This document shows, piece after piece, positions 2,949 through 22,545 of a stretch of DNA of 25,617 bases. Each line of letters begins with the position of its first letter. Position 1 is the first letter of the stretch. Below the pieces are notes generated by a model. The model was not told the origin of the DNA. It saw nothing but the letters and a program-made list of their open reading frames with translations, and searched no databases. The translations under genes and the position numbers were made by a program. Origin of the DNA: Candidatus Hermodarchaeota archaeon (GTDB lineage Archaea > Asgardarchaeota > Thorarchaeia > Thorarchaeales > Thorarchaeaceae); assembly GCA_048885865.1 (NCBI GenBank), contig JBHLLF010000037.1, positions 1 to 25,617 on the forward strand, written 5' to 3'.

Positions 2949-2975
2949 GTCGGTTATCTGCTCATAGAAGTCTAC

Positions 2976-3884
2976 ATGAAGATTGACTATCACGGTGATT
3001 CTCTACCGTTTCCATTGGCTCCATTACGTGGGAAGCTCTTGACTGCTGGGCTATCATATGGTGATACAGATGATATTCTACTGAAGCTGGGTAGTAAAAT
3101 TGCGGCATCTGAGTCAGGCATTTCTATGGAAACAGTGGCATCAATTGCACGAGAATATGTACCTGAATCGTATCTAGCGGATTATGACCTCATCACAAAA
3201 TACGAGGCATTAAGGAGAACTACAGGAGATATCCCTCCGCTTGTGTTAGTACTAGAGGGAGCATCAGCTACTGGCAAGTCCATGCTAGCATTGGACTTCA
3301 TAGTCTTTCTCTCAATTACAAGATTCATTAGTACTGATACTGTTAGGCAGGTACTCAGATGCATTTATTCCAAGGACGAACACCCGGAGTTGCACTGTCA
3401 TACCTACCAAGCCCATGAATATCGAAAAGCAGAGCCTGAGGAACTCGATCCAATGATCAGAGGATATTTGGCTCAATGTGAATTGATAGAACCCACTATC
3501 CGTGATGCTGTGGATAGAATGGTGCAGGAGGGGGCTGAGGGATTAGTTGAGGGCGTCCACATTCTTCCCGGCAGTCTTCAAGACATTAGCCCCGGCGTCC
3601 TGGAGATTCTAGTCCATCCTGAAGAACAAGCTCACCGTGCTATGTTCCTTGCCAAGCATAGTACTTCTGGACTCAGGACTGTATCATCCGATGCAGAGGT
3701 AAGGGAAAATGAATTTCTTGCAGCTCGCCAAATTCAAGAATATATGGCTCAGCTTGCCAAAGAACGCGGGATTGTGAAAGTGATACTATCCGACTATGAG
3801 CAAGCTTCAGAGGAGATACGGTTCATTTTGCTTGACAAGATTCGCGAACTAGTAGATGACCAGAGTGGAGGAAAAGCGCCTTGA
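2976..3884 (+). CDS. 2-phosphoglycerate kinase-family P-loop kinase
   Basis: PLVLVLEGASATGKS (Walker A), ISTDTVRQVLR and VEGVHILP motifs typical of the 2-PGK family. N-terminal ATP-cone-like segment. Confidence 0.8.
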   Translation: MKIDYHGDSLPFPLAPLRGKLLTAGLSYGDTDDILLKLGSKIAASESGISMETVASIAREYVPESYLADYDLITKYEALRRTTGDIPPLVLVLEGASATGKSMLALDFIVFLSITRFISTDTVRQVLRCIYSKDEHPELHCHTYQAHEYRKAEPEELDPMIRGYLAQCELIEPTIRDAVDRMVQEGAEGLVEGVHILPGSLQDISPGVLEILVHPEEQAHRAMFLAKHSTSGLRTVSSDAEVRENEFLAARQIQEYMAQLAKERGIVKVILSDYEQASEEIRFILLDKIRELVDDQSGGKAP

Positions 3885-5275
3885 GCTGGAAGGTGGATTC
3901 TCTTAACCGACTCTTCAATCCAGAGTCCATAGCAATTATCGGCGCTTCGAATCAACCTAACAAGCTCGGATCACTAACACTTCGCGCTCTCAAAGAATCA
4001 AATGCAAGAAAGTACCCAGTAAACCCACGTCATTCTGAGATTAATGGGCTCAAGTGTTACTTCAGTTTGACAGATATTGGAGAGGACATTGATTTAGCAG
4101 TTATAGCTCTAGGGCCCTTGAATGTGCTCACAGCACTCAAAGACTGTGCTGAGGCAAATGTTGGAGGGGCAATCATCTTTTCTGCTGGATTCAAGGAATT
4201 GGGTCCACTCGGCGAAGAACAGCAGGTACAAGTAAAAGAGGTTGCAGACTCTTCCCATATTGCAGTCATTGGTCCGAACTGCCTTGGTGCAGGAAATCCG
4301 TGTATGGCACTGAATGCCACTTTCTTTCCACACCCTGTACCAGTTCAGGGGGGCAGTGTCGCCCTTGTTAGTCAAAGCGGAGGCGTGGCAGGCCTTATGC
4401 TCTATGAGGCTGCTGACGCAGCCATTGGGGTGTCCAAATTTGCCAGCATCGGAAATAGAGTCAACATAGACTTCCACGACATGGTGAGATATCTTGGGCA
4501 GGATGATGAAACAGAGGTCATCTGCTTGTTTGTGGAAGGTACTGAGCATGCTAGGTCAATGTACGATGAGATGGCACATGTGACAAAAGACAAGCCTATC
4601 ATCATGTACAAAGTTGGCAAAACCCCAACATCACGAAAAGCAGCTTTGAGTCACACGGGCAGTTTAGCTGGACGGCATGAGCTATATTCCGCGGCTGCTC
4701 GGCAGAGTGGCGCAATTGAAGCGAGCACTGTCACTGAAATGATGGACACAGCAAAAATCCTCTCAATATGCGGGACTCGTCCAACAGGGCAAAATGTGGT
4801 TATTGTAACTCATACGCTCGGTCCCTCGCTCATAGCAGCACAGATACTCGAAAAGGCTGGATCATCACTTCCACCTCCCTCGCAGGAAACCTCATTGATG
4901 ATTCAACAAATGCTAGCAATGCCAGTCGAGATTCCAATCACCAATCCTGTAGACTTACTCGCTCAGGGCTGGGCTAATCCTGAGATTTTCGCGGGAGCCT
5001 TCAATCTGATAATGGACGACTCACAATATGATGCCGTAGTGATAGTTTTCCAACCAAACTATCAGGAAGACATTGGCGGAGGAGTGCCTATTGACTCGAT
5101 TCTAAAGAAAACCTCAACTTCTGAAAAGACAGTCATTGCAATTCTGAATTCACCTGTCTGCACACCGCCTAAAGGCAAGGACAGATTGGAACATGGGCGT
5201 GTGCCTGTCTTCTCGAATCCTGAGAGGGCGGCTCAAGCGCTCTCAAACGTACTCAGTCTATCTCGAATCTCATAG
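3881..5275 (+). CDS. ADP-forming acyl-CoA (acetate-CoA) ligase alpha-subunit-like CoA-binding protein
   Basis: LFNPESIAIIGAS, YPVNP, IGPNCLG, SQSGG, SIGN, phospho-His SHTGSLAG and NPVDL motifs. The TTG start overlaps the upstream TGA. No ATP-grasp (beta) domain in this ORF. Confidence 0.88.
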   Translation: MSWKVDSLNRLFNPESIAIIGASNQPNKLGSLTLRALKESNARKYPVNPRHSEINGLKCYFSLTDIGEDIDLAVIALGPLNVLTALKDCAEANVGGAIIFSAGFKELGPLGEEQQVQVKEVADSSHIAVIGPNCLGAGNPCMALNATFFPHPVPVQGGSVALVSQSGGVAGLMLYEAADAAIGVSKFASIGNRVNIDFHDMVRYLGQDDETEVICLFVEGTEHARSMYDEMAHVTKDKPIIMYKVGKTPTSRKAALSHTGSLAGRHELYSAAARQSGAIEASTVTEMMDTAKILSICGTRPTGQNVVIVTHTLGPSLIAAQILEKAGSSLPPPSQETSLMIQQMLAMPVEIPITNPVDLLAQGWANPEIFAGAFNLIMDDSQYDAVVIVFQPNYQEDIGGGVPIDSILKKTSTSEKTVIAILNSPVCTPPKGKDRLEHGRVPVFSNPERAAQALSNVLSLSRIS

Positions 5276-7651: not shown

Positions 7652-9127
7652 CTATGGGACGAGGACTCCAGCTGCCAACGATGCATAGTCCAGGATTAGA
7701 CCGGGAAAGATGCCAATCATTATTGTAGCCACTACTGCAAGTAGCACAGCCGCAAGAGGAATCGTCGGAATTCGCAATGTTGTACCTTCTGTTGGTTCCA
7801 TGAAGTAGCAATACCTTAGGATTCTCAAGTAATAGCCAAGTGCAAATACTGAGTTTAGCACAGCAATTATCGCCAACCACCAAAGCCCAGCATCGACTGC
7901 AGCTCCAGGCAATAGGAACCACTTGAACCAGAATCCTGCTGTGAATGGTGCACCTGCCAGAGCAAAGACCATTATTGCCATCAATAGAGCAACAATCGGA
8001 GCACGAGTACTGAGTCCTTTCAAATCATCATATGTAACCTCTTTTCCAATGGAAACAGCCAATGCCCAAACCAGGATAAACGCGCCCGTCTTGATGAGTG
8101 CATGGGCAAACGCGGTAAACATCGCAGCTGCTGCTCCAAAGGCCGTTCCTGCTGCAATCCCCACGAAGAGTAGACCCATCATCATGATGGATGAGAAGGC
8201 TAACATTCTCATGATGTTGCGCTGAGCGAGTGCCAGAATATTCCCAATGATCATGGAAAGAATCGAGATAGTGACTACGACAGGCATCCATTCCATCTGT
8301 GCTGCAACAAATGCAACGAGTAGTATCCGAAGGAGGGCACTTACACCTGTCTTCTTGGTTGCACCAGCCAGATATCCTGTGACGCTTCCGTCAGCAGTTG
8401 CATACGCGTCGGGGACCCACATCCATCCTGGGAACACACCGACCTTGAATCCAAAACCGATCAGGAACAGCACCATAGACAGAAGCATTGCGTAGGCAGA
8501 CGGAGAAGCGGCGCTCCAGACGACACTAACAAATGCAGCAACAGCGGCAAAGCTTGTGGCACCTGTTGTACCATAGACAATTGCAATTCCAAATAGGATG
8601 AGAGTTGACGATAAGAGTCCCATGACGAAGTACTTGGTTGCTCCATCAATAGCTCCTCTGTGGGGCCCTAGCGCAACAAGCACATATGTCGGCGTACTCA
8701 TGAGCTCCCATGCCAAAAACAACGCCACAAGATCGGTTGCCATAACGACCCAAATTGCGCCAGCAAATGACATCATGAGGAGAAAGTTGTATGTACCCTT
8801 ATTTCCACCGTATGTCGTCGACGAAAGCAGTATTATGAATGCGACAACCAGAATGATCCAGATGAAGAAATCGCCAAACATGTCTCTTACAAATAGTCCT
8901 CCAAAGGAAGAACCCTGATCAATGAGAATCATCTCAAAGCCTGCAAGGGCAATGCCAATGAAACTGACTGCCAAAGGACTTCTTCTCATTCCTACAATGA
9001 GTGCCAAGATTCCGAAAAGGATGAGCGTCAAAGCTGGTAATGATACTAGCCAATCCGCTGGGACTAGTGCAAAGAAGGGACTCAAGATGTCGCTGATAGC
9101 ATCGATTATTGTGGAAACCTGTAGCAT
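7652..9127 (-). CDS. nuoN: Complex I-like subunit N (antiporter-like)
   Basis: About 14 TM helices; WELMS, GATKYF, FKVGVFP, WVPDAY, RMLAFSSI and TM12 FWFKW (Lys) motifs. Last gene of the cluster. Confidence 0.92.
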   Translation of the reverse strand: MLQVSTIIDAISDILSPFFALVPADWLVSLPALTLILFGILALIVGMRRSPLAVSFIGIALAGFEMILIDQGSSFGGLFVRDMFGDFFIWIILVVAFIILLSSTTYGGNKGTYNFLLMMSFAGAIWVVMATDLVALFLAWELMSTPTYVLVALGPHRGAIDGATKYFVMGLLSSTLILFGIAIVYGTTGATSFAAVAAFVSVVWSAASPSAYAMLLSMVLFLIGFGFKVGVFPGWMWVPDAYATADGSVTGYLAGATKKTGVSALLRILLVAFVAAQMEWMPVVVTISILSMIIGNILALAQRNIMRMLAFSSIMMMGLLFVGIAAGTAFGAAAAMFTAFAHALIKTGAFILVWALAVSIGKEVTYDDLKGLSTRAPIVALLMAIMVFALAGAPFTAGFWFKWFLLPGAAVDAGLWWLAIIAVLNSVFALGYYLRILRYCYFMEPTEGTTLRIPTIPLAAVLLAVVATIMIGIFPGLILDYASLAAGVLVP

Positions 9128-10671
9128 TATGGAATCACCCCTATCATATCGTTGACTATCGGTATCACTAGATTAAGCACAAGATCTGGCCATAGCCCGA
9201 GTATGATGACTGGTATCATCATCAAGATTGGTGCAATGAGATCACTCCATGGTGCTTCAGTGACTTCCTTCTCAGGATCAGGGTCACTGAACACAATTCT
9301 GTTCAGGGTCCAAAGGAGATATCCTACCGTGACAAAGATCCCAAAGGCGATGAAGCCGGACCAGATGTAGATGTTCACTGACCCAAACAGTACAAGGGCC
9401 TCTGCAATGAATCCGCTCATTCCAGGCAAGCCAAAGGCTGCAAAGACCGCGAGGATAAAGACAGCGGACATTCTAGGAGCTTTCGTCATGAGACCCATGA
9501 CATCAGGAATCAGTCTGCTTCCGGCCGAGTACTTCAGCTGGCCGGCAAGAATGAACATGACAGAAGAAATCATCCCATGGGATACCATCATGAATACTGC
9601 GCCCTGAACTGCAAGGCTAGCTGAGAAGAGTTGACCCTCTGTGGCTCCACCTCCAATGGCAAATCCTCCGATGGCAACTCCAAGTAACACCCATGCCATG
9701 TGGTTGATTGATGTATAAGCAACCATTGACTTCACATCTGTCTGGCCCATTGCTACGAATGCGGCGTAGATGCATGTGAAGACGGCGAGGACGGCGAATG
9801 GGATACTGAGTCGCGCAAATCCTTGCGGAACCATCCAGAGACCCAGTCTAATGAACCCGTATCCACCCATCTTCAAGAGTATTCCAGCGAGTATTACTGA
9901 GCCAGGAGTTGGAGCTTTTACATGGGCCCAAGGTAGCCAGTTGTGCAGAGGAAAGACTGGAAGCTTGACACCAGCACCCAGAAAGACTGCCAGTGCAAAG
10001 CCAATCTGAATGTTGATTGCAATTGGTGCAGCCTTGATCGCAATCATGTTGAATGTACCGGGTCCAAGGAAGAACAGCGCCATGAATGAGACCAACATCA
10101 CAGCTGAGCCAAGGTGTGTGTAGATGAAGAACTTGACAGCTGCGTGTTCACACCCCTCTTCGCCCCATCTTCCTATTATGAAGAACATCGGTATCAAGAC
10201 CAATTCCCAGAAGATGAAGAAGCTGATTAGATCAAATGACATGAATACGCCAAGCAGACCTGTCTGGAGCATCAGAAAGAACATGTAGTACAAGTGCTGC
10301 GATTTCTTGATATGGTTTGAACTGAGTGCTGCAATGAAGACCACGAGGTTTGATAGAAACACCATGGCAACGGATATTCCGTCAACACCTAGGTATATCT
10401 GGAGGAGAGCATTCCAGCTCCCAAATTGCACATCACTAAGTGTGAATGCCCATTCAAACCACATAGCTCCTGGATCTGGCAGAATTGCTACAATGAGGAC
10501 AAATGAAAGCAGGAGTTCAACGAATGTGACAATGAGCGTGAGAGCTCTGCCTCCTCTTGCACCGAGTATGTAGGCAAAGAATGCTGCAACCAATGGGGCA
10601 AATAGCATCAGTGGTAGTATGTTGTCCATTGGCAACATTGCGATGAGGTCCTGGATGAATCCGAGCTGCAT
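9127..10671 (-). CDS. nuoM: Complex I-like subunit M (antiporter-like)
   Basis: LGVDGIS, FFIFWELVLIPM, AVKFFIYT, VKLPVFPLHNWLPWAHVKAPT, LAGILLKMGGYG and GLPGMSGFIAE motifs. Confidence 0.95.
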   Translation of the reverse strand: MQLGFIQDLIAMLPMDNILPLMLFAPLVAAFFAYILGARGGRALTLIVTFVELLLSFVLIVAILPDPGAMWFEWAFTLSDVQFGSWNALLQIYLGVDGISVAMVFLSNLVVFIAALSSNHIKKSQHLYYMFFLMLQTGLLGVFMSFDLISFFIFWELVLIPMFFIIGRWGEEGCEHAAVKFFIYTHLGSAVMLVSFMALFFLGPGTFNMIAIKAAPIAINIQIGFALAVFLGAGVKLPVFPLHNWLPWAHVKAPTPGSVILAGILLKMGGYGFIRLGLWMVPQGFARLSIPFAVLAVFTCIYAAFVAMGQTDVKSMVAYTSINHMAWVLLGVAIGGFAIGGGATEGQLFSASLAVQGAVFMMVSHGMISSVMFILAGQLKYSAGSRLIPDVMGLMTKAPRMSAVFILAVFAAFGLPGMSGFIAEALVLFGSVNIYIWSGFIAFGIFVTVGYLLWTLNRIVFSDPDPEKEVTEAPWSDLIAPILMMIPVIILGLWPDLVLNLVIPIVNDMIGVIP

Positions 10672-10672
10672 T

Positions 10673-13000
10673 CTAGAGCACCCCCAGGGATAGTAGAACG
10701 ATTATGACCAGAATCCCAATCCCGAACATTATCACTCCAACGTAGTCATTGACTCGACCAGTCTGTGCAGACTGACTGGACTCTGAAGCGGCAACGCTGT
10801 ATGTAGAGACCCCTTCAGCAAAACCATCAACGACATTATCATCAAACCATTTCAGCTTCGTTGCTAGACCTTTGCCTGCGTCAGCAGACTTGAAGTCGAT
10901 ACCATCAATGATTTTGTTGTCAACATTCACTCGATAGCGTTCGGCCGCACTCAGGAATTTGTTCAGTATCCAATAGTAGAATTCGTTAATGTACCAACGA
11001 TGCTTCAGGAAGTTGTGCACCCTCCTCCTAAAGCCCTTCTCAGGTACCCAAGTGTTGGGAGTATCAGCACCCCTGATGTACATCACATATCCTGGAATTC
11101 CACCCAGAGCGAGCGCGCCTAGCGTGATCATGAAAGGCACGATTCCCGGATAGGTCAGCTTGACCTCTATCATATGCGCCAAGTTCTCAGCCCATGTATG
11201 ACTCTCTTCAAGCACAATGTTCTGAACGAACGGGAAGACAAGGAACGCAATGACAGTAAAGGCTGCTAGAAGATACAATGGCACCATCATTGCCGGACCT
11301 GGATCATGAGGAGTTGAATGATGCTGCTCTTCGAAGTGGTTGTCATGCGGTTCTTCATGCTTCTCTGAGTTACCTTCATGCGACTCTTCATGCTCCTCTA
11401 GGTCTTCATACTGCAACTCTTCATTGTCTTCTGGTTGCTCATCCTCATGTGAATCGTGTGAGTCTTGTGACTCATCATGGCCATGACTCTCCTTGGAAGG
11501 CCCATAGAAGGTGATACCCATGAGTCGAATGCTATAGAATATCGTGCAGGCAGCTGCCAGGACAGCAAAGAAGAATAGCATCCAACCTATCGGATTTGGC
11601 CATTCAACCGCCAGTTCATAGGCATACTCGATGATAGAGTCCTTTGACCAGAACCCTGAGAACGGCGGGATACCTGCGAGCGCAAGCACACCAATCCACA
11701 TCACGATGAAGGTCTTCCGCATGTATTGTTTGAGACCTCCCATCTTGGTGATGAACTTGGTATGAACGGCGTGTATAACGCCTCCTGATGCAAGGAATAG
11801 AAGGGCCTTGAATGCACCATGCGATATCACATGCATCACGCCGCTCAAGTACGCATCAGTGAAGTGAAGTCCCTCAGCCTGAAGGACGCCGCCCACACCT
11901 AGTGAGAGCATCATGTATCCAAGCTGGCTGAGTGTTGAGAATGCCAGTATCTGCTTGAGCTCGTTTGAGACCATTCCCATGGTCGCCGTCATGAGGGCAG
12001 TAATACCGCCGATGATTGCTACAAAGATGAAGAAGGTCAACGCTGCTTCAAACCCAATTGCCTGAAGTCCAGCGATATGTTCACCACCGTTGCCCTCACC
12101 ACCGGCTGCTGACACCATTGTGACCAGGAATCGAGCGGTGATATAGACACCCGCCTTGACCATCGTCGCAGCGTGGATGAGAGCTGAAACGCTTGTGGGA
12201 CCGGCCATAGCCTCCGGTAGCCAGACCTGCAGTGGAGCCTGTCCGGACTTGCCAATTGCACCCATGAAGATGAGTAGGAATGTAGGCACAAGCATCCCGA
12301 TGCCTGCCATGGTGCTCCACCATGATTGGGCATCAGCCGCCATCTCAGTGAAGGAGAATGTGCCAGTGAAGACGAACAGAATCAGGATACCGCCCAACAT
12401 GAATGCATCACCGATTCTCGTGACGACGAATGCCTTGGTCCCGCAGTGGGTGTTGTACTGTCCCTCGGTTTCGAATTGAAGAAGCGGGTTTGTGGAGTGA
12501 ATGTCTGATGGATCGGTCTCGGGAGGGTTCCTCTTGTCATTCCAGAATCCTATCAAACCATAGGAGCTGAATCCCATGATCTCCCATCCGATAAATGCAA
12601 TCAGAAGGTTGTTGCTGAGCACGAGAGTGAGCATTCCGCCACCGAACGCCAACATCAGGAAGAAGAATCGATCCCGGTCGCCCTCATGAGCCATGTACTC
12701 TGTAGAGTAGACATAGATGAGGAAACACAGAGTGCTGGCTAGAACCCCCATAACAACAGAGAGCGGGTCCAGGAGAACCTCGAACTCGAGTCCTAAGACC
12801 TCAATCCACATCCAGTGCGTGGTCTGGGTCGGGTTTCCAATCTCAGGTAGCAGCGACCAGCATAGAACCATAGAGATTCCCATGAGGATTGCAGGTGTCC
12901 AGTCTCGCGCTCGCTCGCTAAACCTTCCAACAAGTGGAACGAGGAGAGAGCCAAGCAGTGGAATCACGAGGATAAGCCAATAGGGTAGTCCAAGCAACAT
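10673..13000 (-). CDS. nuoL: Complex I-like subunit L with a His/acid-rich loop and an extended lateral helix
   Basis: LDPLS, GWEIMG, KAFVVTRIGD, GKSGQAPLQVWLPEAMAGPTSVSALIHAATMV, FSTLSQLGYM, FWSKD and QTG..Y motifs. ATG at 13000 follows GAGGTGA (track start TTG 13006). Confidence 0.95.
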   Translation of the reverse strand: MLLGLPYWLILVIPLLGSLLVPLVGRFSERARDWTPAILMGISMVLCWSLLPEIGNPTQTTHWMWIEVLGLEFEVLLDPLSVVMGVLASTLCFLIYVYSTEYMAHEGDRDRFFFLMLAFGGGMLTLVLSNNLLIAFIGWEIMGFSSYGLIGFWNDKRNPPETDPSDIHSTNPLLQFETEGQYNTHCGTKAFVVTRIGDAFMLGGILILFVFTGTFSFTEMAADAQSWWSTMAGIGMLVPTFLLIFMGAIGKSGQAPLQVWLPEAMAGPTSVSALIHAATMVKAGVYITARFLVTMVSAAGGEGNGGEHIAGLQAIGFEAALTFFIFVAIIGGITALMTATMGMVSNELKQILAFSTLSQLGYMMLSLGVGGVLQAEGLHFTDAYLSGVMHVISHGAFKALLFLASGGVIHAVHTKFITKMGGLKQYMRKTFIVMWIGVLALAGIPPFSGFWSKDSIIEYAYELAVEWPNPIGWMLFFFAVLAAACTIFYSIRLMGITFYGPSKESHGHDESQDSHDSHEDEQPEDNEELQYEDLEEHEESHEGNSEKHEEPHDNHFEEQHHSTPHDPGPAMMVPLYLLAAFTVIAFLVFPFVQNIVLEESHTWAENLAHMIEVKLTYPGIVPFMITLGALALGGIPGYVMYIRGADTPNTWVPEKGFRRRVHNFLKHRWYINEFYYWILNKFLSAAERYRVNVDNKIIDGIDFKSADAGKGLATKLKWFDDNVVDGFAEGVSTYSVAASESSQSAQTGRVNDYVGVIMFGIGILVIIVLLSLGVL

Positions 13001-13011
13001 TTTCAATCACC

Positions 13012-14529
13012 TCATGGAAGCAAGGTAGCTATTCCTTCTACACCAGGTATGATGACATCTAGTGCCAACCCTGGGAATATTCCAAACAACACAATGAGAA
13101 ATCCAAGGATAATCATCGGGGCAGTCATCCAATCAGAGCTCTCCTTGACATCCTCCAGTTCAGTTGGATGAGGTCCAAGGAAAACCTTCCAAAGATAACG
13201 GAGCATATACCCGGCACTCACTATTGAGCTTGAAACAGCCAAAATGGACAGGACAAAGAACTCGGGTCGTGCGAGCCCTCCTGATCCCATCAGAACTGCT
13301 TCAAAGCCCCCTAGAAACATCATCCATTCACTGGCGAATCCAGAAAGGGGAGGACTCCCTGCAATGCTCATTGCACCGATAGCTGCAGCGAATGCAGTGA
13401 TGGGCATTTTGTTTGAGAGACCGCCCATCTTGTCAACATCCCTCAGATGAGTCTGGTGAATCACCGCTCCAGCGGTCATAAACAAGAGTCCCTTGCTGAA
13501 GGCATGATTGATGAGATGAAACAGACCGCCAGCCACACCAAAAGTGGTAATCATGCCCAGGGCAAAGAGGACATATCCCATCTGCGACACTGATGAGTAA
13601 GCCAGCAGTCTCTTGATGTCTTTCTGGACAAGCGCCATAGCTCCTCCATAGAACATTGTGGCAACACCAAGCAGTCCAATCCAGAATGAGAGCGAGGCGG
13701 CTGCGGGTCCAAGCGTTATGATTCCGAAACGGACGAGAGCATATGCGCCGGTCTCAATCATTGCTCCAGATAGTAGAACAGAGATAGGAGTCGGTGCTTC
13801 TGCGTGAACTGGAGGCAGCCACCAATGCAATGGGAAAGCTGCCATCTTGACTAGGAAGCCGGCAGCGAACAGGATGAATATGATCTGCAACAGTCGTAGG
13901 TCTGACCAGATGGCTGGAGCCATTGCTAGAATAGAGTATAGCTCAAACGTACCCGTAAAGAAGTACAATAGACCCAAGGCAATCAATATACAGACTGCGC
14001 CAGCTTGAGTGTAGAGCCAGAACTTAATGGCGGTCCGTTTTCGGGTTTCAGGCAAGCCCCAAAACAGAATCAGGAAGTAAGATGGGACAAGCATGATCTC
14101 CCAAAAGATGAAGAATTCCAGCAAATTTGTTGCCAGCGTTACACCTTGCATTCCCATGATGAAGAATAACGTGTTTGCAAAGAATGTGGGCTTGTTCTCA
14201 GTATGTTCTGTGTAACCTACGGCATAAATCACCGAAAGAAACCCTAATACTACGACGGCAAACGTGATTGGGAAGGCAATCTCATCAAGGTAGAGACCAA
14301 ACTCCCCAAGTACAACTGACCAGGTGACTTTCTCAGCAGCTCTACCACCTTCCACCAGGACCCGGTAGAATGGAGGTACCATTAGCAATGCGCCCACTGC
14401 TGAGAATCCAACTGCCATCTTCCCTGATGTCTTTTCGAGTCGTCCGCGGAGTAGGTAGATCAAGAGACCTCCTATAAAGAGGACAAGCAAGGACAAGGTC
14501 ATGAATGGAAACTCGAACGACAGCTGCAT
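13012..14529 (-). CDS. nuoM: Additional NuoM/MrpD-like antiporter subunit (M')
   Basis: FFIFWEIMLVPSY, AIKFWLYT, VKMAAFPLHWWLPPVHAEAPTP, DIKRLLAYSSVSQMGY and GFASEW motifs. ATG at 14529 overlaps the nuoI stop (TGATG) after GGAGG. Confidence 0.85.
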   Translation of the reverse strand: MQLSFEFPFMTLSLLVLFIGGLLIYLLRGRLEKTSGKMAVGFSAVGALLMVPPFYRVLVEGGRAAEKVTWSVVLGEFGLYLDEIAFPITFAVVVLGFLSVIYAVGYTEHTENKPTFFANTLFFIMGMQGVTLATNLLEFFIFWEIMLVPSYFLILFWGLPETRKRTAIKFWLYTQAGAVCILIALGLLYFFTGTFELYSILAMAPAIWSDLRLLQIIFILFAAGFLVKMAAFPLHWWLPPVHAEAPTPISVLLSGAMIETGAYALVRFGIITLGPAAASLSFWIGLLGVATMFYGGAMALVQKDIKRLLAYSSVSQMGYVLFALGMITTFGVAGGLFHLINHAFSKGLLFMTAGAVIHQTHLRDVDKMGGLSNKMPITAFAAAIGAMSIAGSPPLSGFASEWMMFLGGFEAVLMGSGGLARPEFFVLSILAVSSSIVSAGYMLRYLWKVFLGPHPTELEDVKESSDWMTAPMIILGFLIVLFGIFPGLALDVIIPGVEGIATLLP

Positions 14530-14960
14530 CAACGGAACCTCCTTCCACGCCACTCAAGTGGGTCTCGATCGAGAGTTTCTATCTTGTCAGGACCGTAGAG
14601 TAAGTCCTCCCTCTCTCCTTCGCTAATATCTACAACCTGAGTGTGAAACAGTGCGTCAAACCTGCAAGCTTGAACGCATAGGCCACAGAATATACACCGT
14701 GTGTAATCAAAATAGAGGGCGGCGTCTTTCTCGAAATGCTTGTCACTCTTATCGATGCTAATAGCGACAACAGGACACGCACGTACACATTGCATACATG
14801 CAGTGCATTTCTCACGTACATGGATATGCCTTCCACGAGTCCTCTCGGGATATTCCCTGTCCTCGAAGGGATAGAAGTATGTGAATGGACGGGACATCAC
14901 TTGACGGAATATGTGTCTCAATATCTGGAATATGTCACCTAGATTTCTGAAGAATCCCAT
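14529..14960 (-). CDS. nuoI: Complex I-like subunit I, 2x[4Fe-4S]
   Basis: FTYFYPFE...RGRH, CTACMQCVRACP and CIFCGLCVQAC motifs. Confidence 0.95.
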   Translation of the reverse strand: MGFFRNLGDIFQILRHIFRQVMSRPFTYFYPFEDREYPERTRGRHIHVREKCTACMQCVRACPVVAISIDKSDKHFEKDAALYFDYTRCIFCGLCVQACRFDALFHTQVVDISEGEREDLLYGPDKIETLDRDPLEWRGRRFR

Positions 14961-14966
14961 CTTACT

Positions 14967-16097
14967 TTACCCTCCTATTCCAAGAATTGCTTGTAGCAAG
15001 GGGATGTTGGCTACTCCCAACATCACAAGCATAACGTTCAGTATTGACAATGGTAGCAGGTACTTCCAACAGAAGTAGACAATCTGGTCTTGTCTTAGCC
15101 GATGGAATGATGAAGTCACAACGACGAAGAAGAAGAACACTATCAGGAACTTGATGATGAAGATCACACTTCCTGGCAAGAAGGCTGGTCCATGGAATCC
15201 TCCAAGGAACAACGCAACTATCAGCGCTGAATAGAGCGCCTGCTCGGCAAACTCCGCGAAATAGGTGAGAGTGAAATAGATACCACTGAATTCAGTCCTC
15301 CAACCAAAGATGACCTCCGAGTCAGCAACTGGAGCATCGAATGGGAATGTACCAACGGATGCGATAGCTGCCACTAGGAATGTGGCAACATTGATTGGCA
15401 ACAGGAAAATGAACCAGATATTTGATTGTGCTTGTGTGATTCCCATTACACTGAGAGAGCCAGCTAGCATTGCAGGTCCTACGGTTGAGATGATGAGTGG
15501 AATCTCACTCGCAAATTGATTGTTGGCTGCTCTGAAGCCACCGATGAGTGTATACTTGGACCCACTTATCCAACCAGATAGCAATGCTACTATAGGCACT
15601 GCAGTTAGAAATGCGAAGACTAGCACTAGGCCGACCGATAAGTCAGCAATGTACCAAATTGGATCCCATGGGATGAAAGCAAATGGGATTAGGACAACCA
15701 ACAACAATAGTGATGGAAGGAACCTATACATCCAGCGTTTCGCCTTGTCAGGGATTATTGTTTCCTTTCCTACGAGCTTAATCGCATCAGCGAAGAGTTG
15801 AAGTCCTCCGTATTTGCCCAAGTGAAATGGACCACGCCTGTCTTGAATTCTGCCCCAGAGCTTGCGAGTAAACCAAACAGCAAAGATGATTGTCATGAGA
15901 ATGAAGACAAGACCTGGGAATAGCACTGCTCGAATTAGGAAGAAGAAGTTGGCTACATCGAATAGAGCTGCCCAAATCCATGTGAAGATGCCCCATATCC
16001 AGTAGAAGATTCCACTGACTATGCCGAACAACCACTGAATGACTCCATATAGCCATTGAGGGATTCCTTGAAGCCATGCAAAGAAATCTATCTGCAA
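14967..16097 (-). CDS. nuoH: Complex I-like subunit H
   Basis: RKLWGRIQDRRGP, LQLFADAIKLVGKE, SKYTLIGGFRA, PFD, EFSG, LFLGG and RLRQDQ motifs. Start is uncertain: TTG at 16097 after GGAGGTG, or ATG at 16112. Confidence 0.92.
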   Translation of the reverse strand: MQIDFFAWLQGIPQWLYGVIQWLFGIVSGIFYWIWGIFTWIWAALFDVANFFFLIRAVLFPGLVFILMTIIFAVWFTRKLWGRIQDRRGPFHLGKYGGLQLFADAIKLVGKETIIPDKAKRWMYRFLPSLLLLVVLIPFAFIPWDPIWYIADLSVGLVLVFAFLTAVPIVALLSGWISGSKYTLIGGFRAANNQFASEIPLIISTVGPAMLAGSLSVMGITQAQSNIWFIFLLPINVATFLVAAIASVGTFPFDAPVADSEVIFGWRTEFSGIYFTLTYFAEFAEQALYSALIVALFLGGFHGPAFLPGSVIFIIKFLIVFFFFVVVTSSFHRLRQDQIVYFCWKYLLPLSILNVMLVMLGVANIPLLQAILGIGG

Positions 16098-16111
16098 CGT
16101 GACACCTCCCA

Positions 16112-17248
16112 TCAGCGATCCCACCACCCTGGATACGGATCAAGCGATCCGAAAACGACAATGAAGTCTGCAAACTTCGCACCCGGAACCAGATGCTTCA
16201 GTGAATAGTAAGAGTTGAAACAGGGGCCACGTATCTTGGCCCTGTAAGGAGTCTGCGCCTTCTCAGTAGTCTTAAGCCAGAGGGTTGAAATTCCTCTTGT
16301 CCCTTCAACACGACCGTAGGCCTCACCTTCCGGAAGTCTGTTGGCCTTGGCACGTGCCTTGGGATCAATGATGGGGCCCTCGGGAACTAATGGTAGTAAT
16401 TTCCGGATTATCTCTGCTGAGGTTTCCATCTCCTTGAATCGCTGGACCATTCTGTCGTAGGCATCACTCTCTCCGGGGTGGTCCTCGCTCTCAGTAATTG
16501 GAACTTCCCAATCGATCATATCATAGGCAAGATTCGGGTCAGGGGAATCTTTGCGGAGGTCCATCGGCAGACCACATGCCTTGATTGGCGGACCGCTAAG
16601 ACCAAACTTCAGACCTTGCTTCAGAGTGTATTGACCAATGCCCTCTGTCCTTGCTCGGAAAGTAGGACTGCCCATAAGCATATCCCGCATCACAGGCATC
16701 CGATCTTCAAACCGCTCTAAAGCAATGTCAAGCTTCTTGAGCACCTTGTCTGTGAAGTCGTATTTCACACCACCGGGTGTGCTATAGGAAACGGCATGTC
16801 GGGACCCGCTGAGCTCCTCGAAAGTATCGAGGAAGAACTCACGGTCAACCCATGGCCACAGCAACATAGCGAATAACCCAAGCTCAGCTGAGAACTGACC
16901 CCACCAGAACTGCAACGAATGTATTCGGCTGGCCTCCATCATGATGGTTCGCATAACTTTCGCTCGTTCAGGTACTTCTAGTTCCGCAATCTTCTCAACC
17001 GCCATGATGTAAGGATACTCGGCCAGAAATGCCTCAAGCATGCAGAGCCGTTCCATGATAAGAGACCCTTGCCTGAAGTTCCTGTACTCCAAGCACTTCT
17101 CAGCTGATCGGTGGAAATATCCGGCGTTAGGGTCGCATTCTACTACAAAGTCTCCAACGAGAGTAAGTTTGGCGGCCCATCCGTGCGCAGATACGTGCTG
17201 AGGTCCGAACCAGACCTCGGTTGTTTCGTCTAGAATGTCAGGGCTCAT
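16112..17248 (-). CDS. nuoD: Complex I-like subunit D (no NiFe site)
   Basis: FGPQHVSAHG, GYFHRSAEK, RTEGIG, GLSGP, GEAYGRVEGTRG, PYRAKIRGP and C-terminal SLDPYPGWWDR. Lacks both CxxC hydrogenase motifs. Confidence 0.92.
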   Translation of the reverse strand: MSPDILDETTEVWFGPQHVSAHGWAAKLTLVGDFVVECDPNAGYFHRSAEKCLEYRNFRQGSLIMERLCMLEAFLAEYPYIMAVEKIAELEVPERAKVMRTIMMEASRIHSLQFWWGQFSAELGLFAMLLWPWVDREFFLDTFEELSGSRHAVSYSTPGGVKYDFTDKVLKKLDIALERFEDRMPVMRDMLMGSPTFRARTEGIGQYTLKQGLKFGLSGPPIKACGLPMDLRKDSPDPNLAYDMIDWEVPITESEDHPGESDAYDRMVQRFKEMETSAEIIRKLLPLVPEGPIIDPKARAKANRLPEGEAYGRVEGTRGISTLWLKTTEKAQTPYRAKIRGPCFNSYYSLKHLVPGAKFADFIVVFGSLDPYPGWWDR

Positions 17249-17766
17249 TCAGTCGCACCTCCTTCTGGTGTCTTTGAAGGCGTTCTGTCGGCCTCCTCGA
17301 GCCGGGCCCTATCTGTCACAAAGCTCTTCCTCAGAGGATATTTCCCTTCGAGCTCTTCAGGAAGCAGCAAAAGCCGGAGATCAGGATGTCCTTTGAAAGT
17401 GATTCCAAACATCTCCCAGGTTTCTCTCTCATGCCACTCCATGCCTGGGAAAATATCACAAATTGTATCCACCTCGGGATTGGTACCCTCAAGTGAAACT
17501 CGGAGGTGATATTGAGTTCTATTGGCTCGCGACCAGAATATGTAGATGACCTCATACTTGTCTTCTTGAAGGTCAACTCCAAAAACGCTCTCTGGAAATG
17601 CATCATCAATCTGCTCGTCAATCATCCCAACAACATCTCTGATCTTGTCCGCTGGTACTATGCACTCAAGGATACCATCTTCCTTTGGAGTACATTCAAC
17701 ACCAGGAAACTTGTTGACAATCTGCCTACCAAATGTGGCACCAGACATAGGAGCACCTTCAGACAT
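17245..17766 (-). CDS. nuoC: Complex I-like subunit C
   Basis: WHERETWEMFGITFKGHPDLRLLLLP...YPLRK signature. GGAGGA upstream. Confidence 0.93.
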   Translation of the reverse strand: MSEGAPMSGATFGRQIVNKFPGVECTPKEDGILECIVPADKIRDVVGMIDEQIDDAFPESVFGVDLQEDKYEVIYIFWSRANRTQYHLRVSLEGTNPEVDTICDIFPGMEWHERETWEMFGITFKGHPDLRLLLLPEELEGKYPLRKSFVTDRARLEEADRTPSKTPEGGATE

Positions 17767-18079
17767 CGATCTTATCCTCCTGTGAGATTGGTCTTCCTAG
17801 GTCCACTGTTCCATGCCGCCTATTGTAAGCAAGCATCAAAACTAAGGCTAAAGCAGTGTGAGCTGCGGCAACTGATATCATGAGAATGATGAGAGCCTGT
17901 CCTGTCAGCGTGAAGGTAGGGCTGTAGACTGCAAAAGCAGCTATAGCGATGCTGACTCCGTTCCCCATAATCTCCGCCCCAATTAGGATTCTAATGAGGT
18001 TCCTTTTCACCATCATTCCATAGGCTCCGAGGCCAATCAGGATGAATGCAACAGCAAGGTACCAAGAAAGCGGGACCAT
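17759..18079 (-). CDS. nuoK: Complex I-like subunit K
   Basis: 3 TM helices; GLGAYGMMVKRNLIRILIGAEIMGNG and GQALII..VAAA motifs. Confidence 0.92.
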   Translation of the reverse strand: MVPLSWYLAVAFILIGLGAYGMMVKRNLIRILIGAEIMGNGVSIAIAAFAVYSPTFTLTGQALIILMISVAAAHTALALVLMLAYNRRHGTVDLGRPISQEDKIDV

Positions 18080-18753
18080 TAGTCAGTCACCTCCTCACTG
18101 ACTTCCGCCTCAGGAGTTTCTTCTGGGGTCTCTTCAGGCTCCGGAAGCTCTTCTGGCTCAGGCTCAGGTTCTTCAGGTTCTGGTGCTGCTTCGATGCCAA
18201 ACTCGGCAACTATACCCTTCATCAGTTCTGCCTTATCCATCTTCATGAGCGCGATGACACCCACGAGAGATGTCACAATGATGAGTGCAATGAGTTGAAC
18301 ATAGATTCCGTGATCACCCCACAGCCACTCAGCGAGAAGAGCCACGTTGTTTGAAGCGTCTATTGTGCCTTCTGGAATTGTGTCACTCCATGGGAAGGTC
18401 AGGGCTAGAATTGCAGAGAGAAACACTATGGAGCCAGATACAAGTATACCAACCTTCTTTGCACGGGGCGACTCAATTGACTCGAGTGTGGAATCTTGTG
18501 CTCTTGGCAGCAGGAGAACACCGAATATGATCAACGCACTTATGCCTCCAGTATACACCGCAATCTGCATACCAGCAACAAAAGGTGCTTCCAACAAAAG
18601 GAAGAATCCAGCTACAAATGACGCCATGAACCCAAAGAAGAATGCAGCATAGACAATCTCTCTGTGCTCCAGAGCGAGGTAAGCTAGAACAATTACAATT
18701 CCTGCGATCAACAGAAACTCAACCGACTCGAATGCAGACTCAAATCCTTGCAT
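18079..18753 (-). CDS. nuoJ: Complex I-like subunit J with a Glu/Pro-rich tail
   Basis: IVYAAFF, LEAPFVAGMQIAVYTGGI signature, 5 TM helices, and a PEPEEPEPEPEE tail. Confidence 0.9.
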   Translation of the reverse strand: MQGFESAFESVEFLLIAGIVIVLAYLALEHREIVYAAFFFGFMASFVAGFFLLLEAPFVAGMQIAVYTGGISALIIFGVLLLPRAQDSTLESIESPRAKKVGILVSGSIVFLSAILALTFPWSDTIPEGTIDASNNVALLAEWLWGDHGIYVQLIALIIVTSLVGVIALMKMDKAELMKGIVAEFGIEAAPEPEEPEPEPEELPEPEETPEETPEAEVSEEVTD

Positions 18754-19211
18754 TAGTGATGTTCCCTCCCTGCTGTGTGTGGCTCTTCGAGATGTCTGGC
18801 TTTTGCAGCTCGATATGCCTCGAGAGTTTCCTTACCATCAAGTGAGGTTTGAGGCAGATACCTCATCGCGTATCCAATTGCACCCATGATAATCACAACA
18901 AAGATGAAAGTCTGCCAAGCGACTACTGGGTTCAACCGTAGCGGAGATACAGTAAGCAACCAGAGAAATGCGCCCATCACGTCTATGATGACAAAGAGAA
19001 TTGTATAGATGATGTAACTGTAGGGAAATGACATCCGTGCTGGTCCTATTGGCTCCTCTCCGCATTCATATGTAGATGTCTTCTCAGAGTTTTGAAGTAT
19101 ATGGGGCCGCAGAACCCATGATGCCAATAGCATGATCACAATCAGGACAATTACAAGAATGGCCCACACTAAGACTGGGATGAATTGGAGAAACAGCCTA
19201 TCTGTCTGCAA
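18753..19211 (-). CDS. nuoA: Complex I-like subunit A
   Basis: KTSTYECGEEPIG signature, LFVIID, 3 TM helices. GGAGG upstream of the TTG start. Confidence 0.92.
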   Translation of the reverse strand: MQTDRLFLQFIPVLVWAILVIVLIVIMLLASWVLRPHILQNSEKTSTYECGEEPIGPARMSFPYSYIIYTILFVIIDVMGAFLWLLTVSPLRLNPVVAWQTFIFVVIIMGAIGYAMRYLPQTSLDGKETLEAYRAAKARHLEEPHTAGREHH

Positions 19212-19554
19212 TCTTCAAGACCCTCCTAGGTCCGTTCTAGAATGAAAAACCTTCGAGCCACCTAGAATGGATGGAACCATTCCAAACACATTCTTCCGGA
19301 ATCCTTTGTCCATAGCAGTCAAGCTCCAACCTTTGTTAGGTGACGTATTCCAGGTCCAATCGTGTACACGACAGCCAAGATTATTTCCAAAACCATCAAG
19401 GCTGGTTGCCTTATGGTGTGGACTACCTTGTGCTGCGAAGGTCGGCGTACAAAGTAGCATGATAAAAAGGCTTCGACCAGTTTCCCTCAAAGGGCTTAAA
19501 TAGAGCACATATTCCAGATGGAAACAGTTTACCGACAAGATACAGGTGATACAA

Positions 19555-19905
19555 TTGTCATACAAAGAAGAGGGTACATTCTTCTACTACCTCGCGCTTC
19601 TAATCGGAATGGGATTCATTGGAGCATACTTCTGGATCATCTTGACTGTGGCACCAATAGATCTCAACTTCCAATACTTCATCTTCTTGAGTGGGCTGTT
19701 CTTCGTAGTAGCGACTCTTAGTATTGCATATGCAGCAACACGCAGTGGACGAATAGGTGCCACGATGGCCTCCGGTATCTTCGGTGGCGTACATGCCTAT
19801 TTGGATATAACTCAGTACACGGACCTAGCAGGTATTCTCCTCTTTGCATGGGTTGCCTTCGGTCTGCTGCTAGCCTTTGCTGCGTTTGCTTGGCTTCGTG
19901 AATGA
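19555..19905 (+). CDS. Hypothetical 4-TM membrane protein (paralog of 20005-20550)
   Basis: Four hydrophobic helices. TTG at 19555 follows GGTGA (track start GTG 19546). TTAAATA box at about 19496-19502. Motif-level similarity to the neighbouring gene. Confidence 0.8.
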   Translation: MSYKEEGTFFYYLALLIGMGFIGAYFWIILTVAPIDLNFQYFIFLSGLFFVVATLSIAYAATRSGRIGATMASGIFGGVHAYLDITQYTDLAGILLFAWVAFGLLLAFAAFAWLRE

Positions 19906-20004: not shown

Positions 20005-20550
20005 CTATTCAGTAGGAGCTTCCTCGGGTGATTCAGTTGATTCTTCAGCTGCGTCACTAGATTCTAGTTCAGGTGCCGCTTCTGACTCGGCTTCACCCTC
20101 ACTGGCTTCCTCTCCCACTGACTCAGGCTTAGGCTCAGGCTCAGGTACCGGCTTGTATTTGTAGTCGCTGACTTCCATAATTCCTGGAGTCACACTTACC
20201 TCCATTGGATCCAGCATTGAGAAGCCACCAGCCAGAAGGATTGCGCCGCCCATTCCCCAGGATGCATAGATGATGTCACTGCCAAAGTAGACCAAGGCAT
20301 AGATTGTGTAGAGAACTCCAATGACAATTGCCATCGAGAGCATGTTGACCTTTATCCTGCCTCGCTTCGGTCTGAAGTATCCTACGAGAAAGAACACCAT
20401 TACCAGCGGACCGCCAGCCATGAATGGGAAGTGCAGCGCCATTGCGGTATCGGCAATAGAAGCTAGCAGGAGGTCGAAGACATACGCACTTAGAATAATT
20501 GTGCCAATCAGTAGCATGCAGTACTGGTCACTGTCTTCACGCAATTTCAT
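20005..20550 (-). CDS. Hypothetical 4-TM membrane protein with an acidic tail
   Basis: ATGA overlap with the FAD-NuoB stop suggests translational coupling. Four TM helices and an E/P/S-rich C-terminus. Confidence 0.82.
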   Translation of the reverse strand: MKLREDSDQYCMLLIGTIILSAYVFDLLLASIADTAMALHFPFMAGGPLVMVFFLVGYFRPKRGRIKVNMLSMAIVIGVLYTIYALVYFGSDIIYASWGMGGAILLAGGFSMLDPMEVSVTPGIMEVSDYKYKPVPEPEPKPESVGEEASEGEAESEAAPELESSDAAEESTESPEEAPTE

Positions 20551-22487
20551 TGAATCATCCCCATTGCGTCCTGGTTCTCATACTTCAGCTGCCAGTGTGT
20601 AGTACCTGCACGAATCTTGTTCTGAAGTATCAAATGAGCCCTGACGAAGTCAGATGGCTTAGGGGGACAGCCGGGCAAATAGACGTCGACAGGGACTACG
20701 GACTCAGGTGGAACCTGCAGCGAATATCCGTCCCAAAAAACGCCCCCACTGGCTGCACACTGTCCGAAGGCAATCACGAACTTGGGGTCTGGCATCATCT
20801 CGTAGACTCTTCGAAGTCGTGGAGCCATCTTCTTTGTTAGAGACCCAGATATCCATAGCACATCACACTGACGCGGGCCAAATAGTGGGAGCATCCCGAA
20901 TCGTTCAAAGTCCCATCTTGACGCAATTCCAGCTGCACCATCCACCATGCAACATCCTAATCCGTATTGCACTGGCCATGGACTATGCGCTCGGCCCCAT
21001 CGCAGCATCCACTTGAGCGGCGGCAGGTTCTGGAGCCACTTCAGAAGTATTGGAGCAATCCTGCCAAACCCATTCCTGAATAGGTCATAGAATATCCAGA
21101 GGAAGTACTTACCAAACTTGAGAATAAGTGGTAGCCAATAGGCAAACACCTTCCCAGGGTTTGATATCTCCTTCTTGTCGTACTTGAGCTTTGCTGCACG
21201 AATCTTTGCCAATCGCTGTTTTCCAAAGTACTGACTAGCTTGGTTTGCAAACCAGATTCCCGTGGAGTGTGCGTGACCGCCGTGTCTCTGTGCAATCTTG
21301 AAGACGACAAAGCTCTGAGCCCATGATAACATGAAGAACCTGCGGCGCTCATCTTCGAGGAAATAACCCATCATAGTGACGGCATTTGGTGAGTTGACAT
21401 AGCCGTCAATGCCAGCTTGCGCAGATCCTTGCTCAAATTGCCAATCATCCAGTATTGCTGTGAGGTTCTCAAGGGGAGCAAATGCTTGGCCAACGACGAG
21501 GGTGGGACCAGCCTTCTTGACTCGCATTGGATAGAAGCGGTCATGCCATTCGTGAGCAGCGACATGCTCATCGTAGACAGTTCCCTTGTACATCTCCGTG
21601 ACTTCTTCAACAACTCTCAAGCCTTCTGCAATCTCCTCCTCATCTCCATCGTATGCAACCATAATGCTGCCGTGATGAACAGGGAATGGGAACTTCTCTT
21701 CACTGTCCCAAATCTTCTTCTTCAAGTCAGTGTATTTGGACTCTTCAAACTTAATCGTGAATGGAAGAGGGCCATCTTCGAGTATCTTCTCAATGGCATG
21801 GACCATCAGATAATTCTCAGGGAAACTTGACACGATTACCTTGATCGGTGTGAGAGGCTTGATCTTCAGGGTGACCTTTGTAATTATTCCGAGGATTCCT
21901 TCGGTGTCGCAGAATAGGTCACAGTCCTTACTTTTGACAATCTTGCCAGTCGGTAAGACCACCTCAAAAGCTACGACATTCTTGTTAATGTTTCCGTACT
22001 TGAGAGAGCCAATTCCATCGCCGCCCTGTGCAACCCATCCACCAATGGTTGCTGAGAGTCCAGAAGAGGGATAACAACGCAAATCGAAGTTCTTTCGGTT
22101 CAACTCGAATTGCAGGTTCGCCCATGAGAGTCCTGGTTCAACGGTGACGGTCATGTTTTCTTCATCAATTTCAACAACCTTGTCCATAACACGCATGTCA
22201 ACTATGATGCCGCCCTTACGAGGAATAGCACCACCATATCCTGAAGTGCCCGCCCCCCTTGGTACAAGAGGGACCTTGTACTTGTTTGCGAACTTGTAAA
22301 GGAATTTAATCTCTTCAGGGGTTTGAGGCTGAACAATCGCGTCAGGCTTGACGTTCATTAACCAGCCCACTTGTTTGGGCAAAGAACCAACATCCATGCC
22401 ATGGATTACGAGCTCATGCTTCTCTGTGATCACGCGGTCTTCATAGACCTCAGCGAGTTCCGTCACTAGCTTTGGCTTCAGTGTCAT
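20547..22487 (-). CDS. nuoB: Fusion of a GlcD/D-lactate dehydrogenase-type FAD-linked oxidoreductase with complex I subunit B
   Basis: N-terminal part: VPRGAGTSGYGG, VTVEPG, PSS..ATIGGWVA, LKYG, TEGILGIITKVTLK, ISNPGK. C-terminal part: GLGCC, DFERFG, PRQCD, KMAPRLRRVYEMMPDPKFVIAFGQCAASGG, VDVYLPGCPPKP. One uninterrupted frame. ATG at 22487 (track start TTG 22502). Confidence 0.93.
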   Translation of the reverse strand: MTLKPKLVTELAEVYEDRVITEKHELVIHGMDVGSLPKQVGWLMNVKPDAIVQPQTPEEIKFLYKFANKYKVPLVPRGAGTSGYGGAIPRKGGIIVDMRVMDKVVEIDEENMTVTVEPGLSWANLQFELNRKNFDLRCYPSSGLSATIGGWVAQGGDGIGSLKYGNINKNVVAFEVVLPTGKIVKSKDCDLFCDTEGILGIITKVTLKIKPLTPIKVIVSSFPENYLMVHAIEKILEDGPLPFTIKFEESKYTDLKKKIWDSEEKFPFPVHHGSIMVAYDGDEEEIAEGLRVVEEVTEMYKGTVYDEHVAAHEWHDRFYPMRVKKAGPTLVVGQAFAPLENLTAILDDWQFEQGSAQAGIDGYVNSPNAVTMMGYFLEDERRRFFMLSWAQSFVVFKIAQRHGGHAHSTGIWFANQASQYFGKQRLAKIRAAKLKYDKKEISNPGKVFAYWLPLILKFGKYFLWIFYDLFRNGFGRIAPILLKWLQNLPPLKWMLRWGRAHSPWPVQYGLGCCMVDGAAGIASRWDFERFGMLPLFGPRQCDVLWISGSLTKKMAPRLRRVYEMMPDPKFVIAFGQCAASGGVFWDGYSLQVPPESVVPVDVYLPGCPPKPSDFVRAHLILQNKIRAGTTHWQLKYENQDAMGMIQ

Positions 22488-22545
22488 GTGGACTCTCTCC
22501 AAGAGACGAAGCTGCTCTCAGGTCACGGTCGTGGAATCATGCTCC

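Follow-up and report, generated by a model that had tools for sequence, protein, structure and literature searches.

Within a stretch of 25,617 nucleotides (nt) from an Asgard archaeon (Candidatus Hermodarchaeota archaeon, contig JBHLLF010000037.1 of assembly GCA_048885865.1, positions 1 to 25,617; the whole stretch is hereafter called the window), one gene on the minus strand was confirmed to encode a protein of 646 amino acids (aa) that consists of a complete flavin adenine dinucleotide (FAD) domain of the GlcD/D-LDH fold, a conserved tail that is amphipathic and ~50 residues long, and a genuine NuoB, the complex I subunit of cluster N2. An initial annotation, made from the letters of the window, had proposed that NuoB is fused C-terminally to a complete GlcD/D-LDH-type enzyme at 20547-22487, and the Pfam and NCBIfam matches, together with the start of the homologues, bear this out. 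We lean, with some reserve, towards the reading that a GlcD/HdrD-type redox module is tethered via NuoB to the foot of a complex I-type pump that lacks NuoEFG. Public database records label the protein merely as NuoB, and a full-text literature search that included the Asgard complex I preprint 10.1101/2024.07.04.601786, with subscription journals outside its coverage, returned no description of the fusion. The gene and its parts are as follows, with residues numbered from a TTG codon at 22502 (subtracting 5 gives the numbering of the 646-aa protein):

20547..22487, minus strand: FAD-NuoB fusion gene, 646 codons plus stop, the length of its homologues
21933..22346, minus strand: FAD_binding_4 domain, residues 53-190 (Pfam, 1e-39), with the FAD loop PRGAGTSGYGG intact
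21147..21842, minus strand: FAD-oxidase_C cap domain, residues 221-452 (Pfam, 5e-7), with the motifs RFYPMRxK..GP, DER and GGHAHSTG
21000..21146, minus strand: amphipathic tail or linker, residues 453-501, with modelled helices at 456-477, 479-491 and 494-505
20550..20999, minus strand: NuoB domain, residues 502-651, beginning WGR..SPWP..GLGCC

The open frame spans 20547..22502 on the minus strand (651 codons), and translation probably starts at the ATG at 22487, as in the 646-aa homologues, the upstream TTG at 22502 being an unlikely start. The NuoB part matches Oxidored_q6 (PF01058) at residues 531-622 (6e-24, score 84.7 against a Pfam cut-off of 27) and lies above the NCBIfam cut-offs of NF005012 (168.3 vs 116) and TIGR01957 (160.2 vs 142.7). 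All four N2 ligands that the initial annotation had listed were recovered when the fusion was aligned to Nqo6 of Thermus: C517 and C518 (the tandem CC), C582 (GQC) and C612 (PGCPP) match C45, C46, C111 and C140, in an alignment that begins at Nqo6 residue 24, and these cysteines are invariant across the 20 fusions that we compared. An AlphaFold model of the fusion built on a 105-row alignment reached a mean predicted local distance difference test (pLDDT) score of 87 and a predicted TM-score (pTM) of 0.73, with the FAD domain at a pLDDT of 90-98; an earlier model, built from 20 close homologues, had a mean pLDDT of 51 and was discarded.

The junction at 21000-21150, where a chimeric join had been considered, is crossed cleanly, with neither indel nor joint, by contigs of three runs from three studies. 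The same architecture recurs elsewhere, and its two parts are not always encoded by separate genes. Among the 77 genomes of one family (named Thorarchaeota by the sources, hereafter Thor) within a sample of 301 Asgard genomes, 53 carry a NuoB of the fusion type (at least 83% identity), and in ~47 of these, a one-contig genome included, the open frame is at least 600 aa long. Split genes had been suspected behind the six short frames, and trivial causes were found instead: inspection of the contigs showed that those of G149 and G275 stop at contig ends, those of G179, G221 and G242 abut contig ends as judged by their coordinates, and that of G155 has a frameshift within the FAD domain, in an assembly where nuoD is frameshifted too. 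The protein collection contains 46 full-length fusion clusters, and when 1.84 billion cluster representatives were searched exhaustively with HMMER, a single cluster matched end to end. Longer proteins that hold this NuoB were also searched for, and each hit was either a fusion to NuoD, NuoA or NuoC or carried an intein. Frames of ~670 aa that hold NuoB in other Asgard families, in which further FAD fusions were suspected, are in fact NuoI-NuoB-NuoD fusions (Fer4, Oxidored_q6, Complex1_49kDa; L020:3440-5452(+), L021:3271-5277(-), L022:3610-5622(+)); their genes are preceded by nuoC, and they represent an alternative route of Q-module fusion in those families.

Conservation extends to all parts of the protein. 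Compared with a genome of the same genus (G230), the FAD domain has a ratio of nonsynonymous to synonymous substitution rates (dN/dS) of 0.03, the tail one of 0.00 and NuoB one of 0.016, values that indicate strong purifying selection on each of the three. The nearest stand-alone NuoBs (61-65% identity) sit downstream of nuoA with no GlcD neighbour. Thor genera without the fusion are likewise without the type of NuoD encoded in the window, so that presence of the fusion tracks that of this nuo cluster. The genome (87% complete) contains no NuoB other than the fusion, which had been annotated as the only one of the locus: its second PF01058 gene encodes an Mvh-type hydrogenase small subunit, flanked by MvhD-like and NiFe large-subunit genes, and NuoF (PF01512) had no match in the genome. 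A stand-alone nuoB accompanied by nuoEFG was looked for elsewhere in the genome and not found. The statement that neither nuoEFG nor fpoF lies in the window agrees with our domain scans of it; a lone FrhB/FdhB-like gene is located on another contig, between unrelated genes.

The stretch that joins the two enzymes was described initially as an amphipathic-looking linker, and hydropathy and hydrophobic-moment profiles of residues 453-501 are those of an amphipathic, non-transmembrane segment (maximum Kyte-Doolittle value 1.1, hydrophobic moment 0.4-0.56), whose conservation equals that of the flanking domains. Unfused Thor paralogues of the flavoenzyme (55% identity, 498 aa) share the same tail, ending at PPLKW, and the tail is thus ancestral to the flavoenzyme. 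Stand-alone members of the subfamily of ~480 aa have a shortened version of it, two members have true transmembrane helices at its position, and in subfamily proteins of 900-1030 aa it runs into a Fer4_8+CCG domain. Judged by these comparisons, the linker is the C-terminal membrane-surface tail of the flavoenzyme subfamily itself and not a spacer. The join falls between LKW and MLRWGR, where Nqo6 has LEKLVAWGR, a position which implies that the flavoenzyme tail replaces the N-terminal helix of NuoB itself. Solved structures of complex I (Thermus and others) place the NuoB N-terminal helix at the surface of the membrane, close to where quinone enters, in keeping with the proposal of the initial annotation that the flavoenzyme is attached where the NuoB N-terminus meets the membrane.

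The flavoenzyme has the VAO/PCMH fold with its FAD-binding loops intact. Among solved folds it comes nearest to mouse LDHD (8jde and related entries), at a TM-score of 0.84 and 24% identity; LctD and alkyl-DHAP synthase (AGPS) come next. Alignment to LDHD places a Tyr at the His of GHxGDGN and an Ala at the Glu of GEHG, and only the His of EHG is retained. The GEHG motif thus reads AHST and the metal site is missing, the former as had been noted; the corresponding position reads GG(R/K)xY(S/G)xG in the wider subfamily and GGHAHSTG in the Thor fusions, and the motifs conserved in the subfamily are instead RFYPMRxK and DER. Scores to equivalog models are far below cut-off (TIGR00387 glcD, 135.7 vs 567.9; YdiJ, 71.6 vs 1350). 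With the metal site of D-LDH, D2HGDH and GlcD lost, the alignments place the flavoenzyme in a metal-free branch of the GlcD/D-LDH fold. Because this site is missing, the substrate can at best be suggested, and may be an organic acid or similar.

Fusions to CCG domains also occur in the subfamily, as does, in one cluster, a fusion to the quinone-interacting membrane subunit NrfD; by the domain content of its members the subfamily is thus joined repeatedly to membrane electron-transfer modules (CCG domains, NrfD, NuoB). The NrfD-flavoenzyme fusion (P0265; L092:4758-11657) is 867 aa long, shares 39% identity and comes from another archaeal lineage. Its operon has an Hmc-like layout, with two multihaem cytochromes, an NrfC-like Fe-S protein and a CCG gene alongside. 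At E <= 1e-120 none of 201 Asgard genomes contained an NrfD-FAD fusion, an empty answer that carries little weight. The genome of the window itself (G000) has ~13 GlcD-like and ~14 CCG-protein paralogues, many of them as adjacent pairs (contigs C66, C74, C2, C3, C18 and C25).

The flavoenzyme has a dedicated partner, an Fe-S protein of the HdrD-like CCG type, which is predicted to bind at its FAD face. Unfused Thor flavoenzyme genes directly follow a gene for a 408-aa Fer4_8+CCG (HdrD/GlcF-like) protein, and this pair is convergent to Acd, a 297-aa gene and an Ssb-like OB gene, a flank that is the same as that at 2445-5275 of the window. The latter comprises, on the plus strand, an Ssb-like OB gene, a 302-aa gene and an ADP-forming acyl-CoA synthetase-like gene, and is separated here from the flavoenzyme gene by a cytochrome gene, a Ras-like GTPase gene and the whole nuo cluster. 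Most fusion-bearing genomes contain an orthologous CCG gene (65-80% identity), which adjoins the fusion in G239, G284, G152 and G170 and is 3-4 kb off in G230 and G134; in the complete genome G239 it and the fusion gene are in divergent orientation. The partner has two CxxCxxC...C and two CCG motifs, and its best scores are to TfrB, LdhH, GlpC, TmcB and HmcF, every one below cut-off. A flag of one internal TAG on a CCG paralogue turned out to mark its natural stop.

Complex models support binding between the FAD domain and this partner. The FAD domain with its tail paired with the partner at an ipSAE of 0.84 over three runs (0.83-0.85), and the best of three control pairs reached 0.00; scores were read against a mark that is reached by 58 of 80 solved complexes and by 2 of 110 mismatched pairs. 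The modelled partner had a pLDDT of 90, and contact agreement was at least 97%. The predicted interface sets the first cluster motif of the partner (residues 13-28) against the flavoenzyme FAD loops 84-86 and 147-150, also takes in FYPMRxK..GP (323-335) and DER (384-386), and is enriched in subfamily-conserved residues (0.62 vs 0.51, permutation p=0.003). Sequence comparison with solved entries turned up none in which a GlcD-like chain is paired with a CCG chain of this kind, which makes it less likely that the score stems from model memory.

The remainder of the locus encodes the pump and two small membrane proteins:

20005..20550, minus strand: 181-aa protein with hydrophobic, transmembrane-like stretches in its first ~95 residues and an acidic tail (hydropathy)
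19546..19905, plus strand: 119-aa hydrophobic membrane protein, on the opposite strand between the fusion unit and nuoA
14529..19211, minus strand: nuoA, J, K, C, D, H and I (Pfam)
16112-17248, minus strand: NuoD, with ERLCM where complex I has RLDY, ending DPYPGWWDR
7652..14553, minus strand: four antiporter-like subunits (513, 777, 514 and 491 aa), including NuoL

The start of the 181-aa gene overlaps the stop of the fusion (ATGA), and the two are translationally coupled; its homologues occur in the fusion loci of G230 and G239 and in neither of two unfused loci compared. The 119-aa protein is likewise kept in G239 and G230 and is absent from the unfused or sister loci compared. The two small proteins, both multi-TM, are weak paralogues (30% identity over 63 residues, E 0.001) and match no family in Pfam/NCBIfam profile scans; a small protein encoded after the NrfD-FAD gene is unrelated to either. 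The presence of four antiporter-like subunits rather than three suggests a "2M"-type membrane arm. NuoD retains the His of GPQHxxxHG and has Met at the quinone-binding Tyr, and its best solved match is MbsL, of the quinone-free MBS complex (6u8y_L, 3e-57, vs 7e-51 for Yarrowia NUCM). Met occupies this site in 6 of 6 Thor copies examined and in both copies of the nearest sister genome (G025); elsewhere among the Asgard archaea it is Phe or Leu in several families and Tyr in families f14, f22 and f26. Searches of the genome gave no match to MqnA/D or MqnC, a MenD hit below cut-off, and three UbiA genes. The Thor locus also holds multihaem cytochromes.

Under the reading that we favour, a whole membrane-surface flavoenzyme with its amphipathic tail would stand in for the N-terminal helix of the N2-bearing NuoB, and the FAD would exchange electrons with the ferredoxin-like clusters of the HdrD-like partner (two [4Fe-4S] plus two CCG motifs). 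Held by the fusion, this module would sit at the base of the peripheral arm, next to the cavity that NuoB, NuoD and NuoH form for the carrier, and it is most likely there that electrons would pass to or from the pump, by way of an altered quinone site or a carrier soluble in lipid. Ferredoxin would remain the electron donor to the NuoI-NuoB chain, and the FAD would not be wired directly to N2, given that docking of a conserved partner on the FAD face makes it most likely that electrons leave the FAD via the partner rather than straight to N2. The genes themselves establish the fusion, its conservation, the presence of the partner gene in relatives and the lost metal site, whereas FAD-partner binding is modelled, and where the module sits on the complex and by which route and in which direction the electrons run is inferred.

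Several points weigh against this reading. The fusion unit is parted from nuoA-N by a gene on the opposite strand, so that the link between fusion and pump rests on conserved neighbourhood and the status of the fusion as sole NuoB. The orthologue of the CCG partner is not in this assembly, which has only 37%-identical paralogues. Its site most likely falls ~0.9 kb past the end of the contig, as inferred from G230 (94% nucleotide identity), in which the order is CCG gene, a 1236-aa haem-stalk gene and the fusion, and by comparison with which the window ends 812 nt short of the end of the stalk gene. No marker of the futalosine or the classical menaquinone pathway was found above cut-off, and with the Tyr to Met exchange in NuoD as well, the step through a shared carrier is without support. 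Binding is seen in a model built on custom alignments, the AlphaFold confidence for the tail is moderate (pLDDT 65-83), and the placement of the FAD domain relative to NuoB is unreliable. As to the stalk gene itself, its part within the window (22758-25617, plus strand) encodes a surface protein with one N-terminal CxxCH and Ig-like repeats that is cut by the contig end; the G230 version of 1236 aa has a hydrophobic C-terminal end.

A minority chance, and a real one, goes to a quinone-free direct wire, in which N2 would exchange electrons with the CCG/Fe-S clusters of the HdrD-like partner, so that the whole would be an ion-pumping ferredoxin:X oxidoreductase with X a disulfide or organic acceptor reduced at the CCG or FAD site. 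The locus would then stand for a new class of complex I-type enzyme in which N2 talks directly to a fused GlcD/HdrD-type module and not to quinone, a pumping ferredoxin:organic-acceptor/disulfide oxidoreductase, which we likewise put forward tentatively. This would accommodate a NuoD that has lost the quinone Tyr and has MbsL of the quinone-free MBS as its best solved match, the failure to find menaquinone pathway markers, a partner that resembles HdrD, TfrB and TmcB, and the published hypotheses of Fpo-like-HdrD and Fpo-HdrD-GlcD complexes. It is harder to reconcile with a NuoB that is closest to the quinone-reducing NdhK and Nqo6 (2e-41), MbsJ being further off (3e-30), and with the retained His of GPQHxxxHG in NuoD; moreover, solved complex I has N2 buried between NuoB and NuoD, and no model brings the partner near it.

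NuoB could also serve only as an anchor or assembly aid for the flavoenzyme, with no electrons exchanged with the pump, in the manner of L-galactono-1,4-lactone dehydrogenase (GLDH) on assembly intermediates of plant complex I. GLDH (7a24_z, which is among the sequence matches) is indeed a VAO-fold enzyme that sits on complex I without electron transfer, and the flavoenzyme subfamily already has a membrane tail of its own. We nevertheless hold this to be improbable, since the fusion is fixed wherever the nuo cluster occurs and is accompanied by no stand-alone NuoB, the tail is the most constrained part of the protein, and the other fusion partners of the subfamily are all electron-transfer modules.

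Slightly more doubtful still is a partner-free input module, with the FAD domain passing substrate electrons straight to N2 or to a bound carrier. The initial annotation had raised such a new catalytic input feeding N2 directly, which would be a less likely path than that through the partner. It would be suited by the choice of the N2 subunit itself as fusion partner and by the lack of any Fe-S domain between the FAD domain and NuoB in the polypeptide; set against this are the dedicated Fe-S partner, whose gene is a conserved neighbour and which the models dock on the FAD face, the ~50 residues of interfacial helices between the domains, and the position of the NuoB N-terminus at the membrane surface, away from N2. 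An artefact of assembly or gene calling (a chimeric join or a missed stop) is to our mind already refuted by the independent contigs across the junction, the intact frames in other genomes and the full-length protein clusters, and nothing was found in its favour.

How relatives of complex I that lack the NADH module take in or dispose of electrons is an open question in anaerobic and Asgard archaea. A fixed GlcD-NuoB fusion offers direct genetic evidence that HdrD/GlcD modules sit on Fpo-like pumps, and gives the module-on-pump idea a defined target of one polypeptide, one partner and one locus. If electrons do pass between the module and the N2/carrier site, Thor archaea that are supposedly fermentative would gain an energy-conserving link between an organic substrate or disulfide and ferredoxin. 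The direct wire, were it true, would be the first physical proof of the hypothesised Fpo-HdrD-GlcD assemblies, and this in archaeal relatives of eukaryotes.

Set beside known systems, the C-terminal part behaves as a member of the NuoB/Nqo6/NdhK/PSST family: it passes the family models, has the four N2 cysteines, is encoded beside nuoA, J, K, C, D, H, I, L, M and N, and finds its best solved matches in NdhK (6hum_K) and Nqo6 (2fug_6) at ~2e-41, well ahead of MbsJ or MbhJ. It differs from them in that a 450-aa flavoenzyme and a 50-aa tail replace the first ~23 residues of Nqo6 before WGR, in reading CCMVD where NuoB has CCxxE, and in being paired with a NuoD without the quinone Tyr. The plant enzyme GLDH (7a24) offers a precedent for a FAD_binding_4-fold enzyme attached to complex I; unlike the Thor flavoenzyme, however, it is unfused, sits on the membrane arm and has an assembly role, and it matches this FAD domain at 2.8e-10. 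Mouse LDHD shares the VAO/PCMH fold and the FAD loops, whereas the metal-site residues are missing here and RFYPMRxK and DER are conserved instead.

Closer in composition are the GlcD-CCG fusions (~900-1030 aa), of which YdiJ and Dld-II-type enzymes are named examples, and the unfused Thor pair. These belong to the same subfamily (33-56% identity), carry the tail after NPGK and have a Fer4_8+CCG partner, but their tail enters the Fe-S domain or ends the protein, while that of the Thor fusion enters NuoB. The Hmc and Tmc complexes, with their HdrD-like HmcF and TmcB, are resembled in the scores of the partner to TmcB and HmcF, in the sister flavoenzyme that is fused to NrfD and in the multihaem cytochromes; these scores are below cut-offs, and in place of NrfCD or a cytochrome b the Thor locus has a complex I-type pump as its membrane module. 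Thor archaea are not known to be methanogens, so that CoM-S-S-CoB is not expected as an acceptor. Fpo-like-HdrD and Fpo-HdrD-GlcD complexes have been hypothesised in Methanomassiliicoccales, Methanomethylicia, Bathyarchaeia and Korarchaeia (PMC6421429, PMC6783470, 10.1101/2022.08.18.504445), and the Thor system resembles them in its three components, a headless complex I-like pump, a flavoprotein of the GlcD kind and an HdrD-like protein with CCG motifs. Those complexes were proposed from gene content and are unfused, whereas in Thor the GlcD part is covalently on NuoB, a join which, read from the gene, constitutes Rosetta-stone evidence for physical association of the two.

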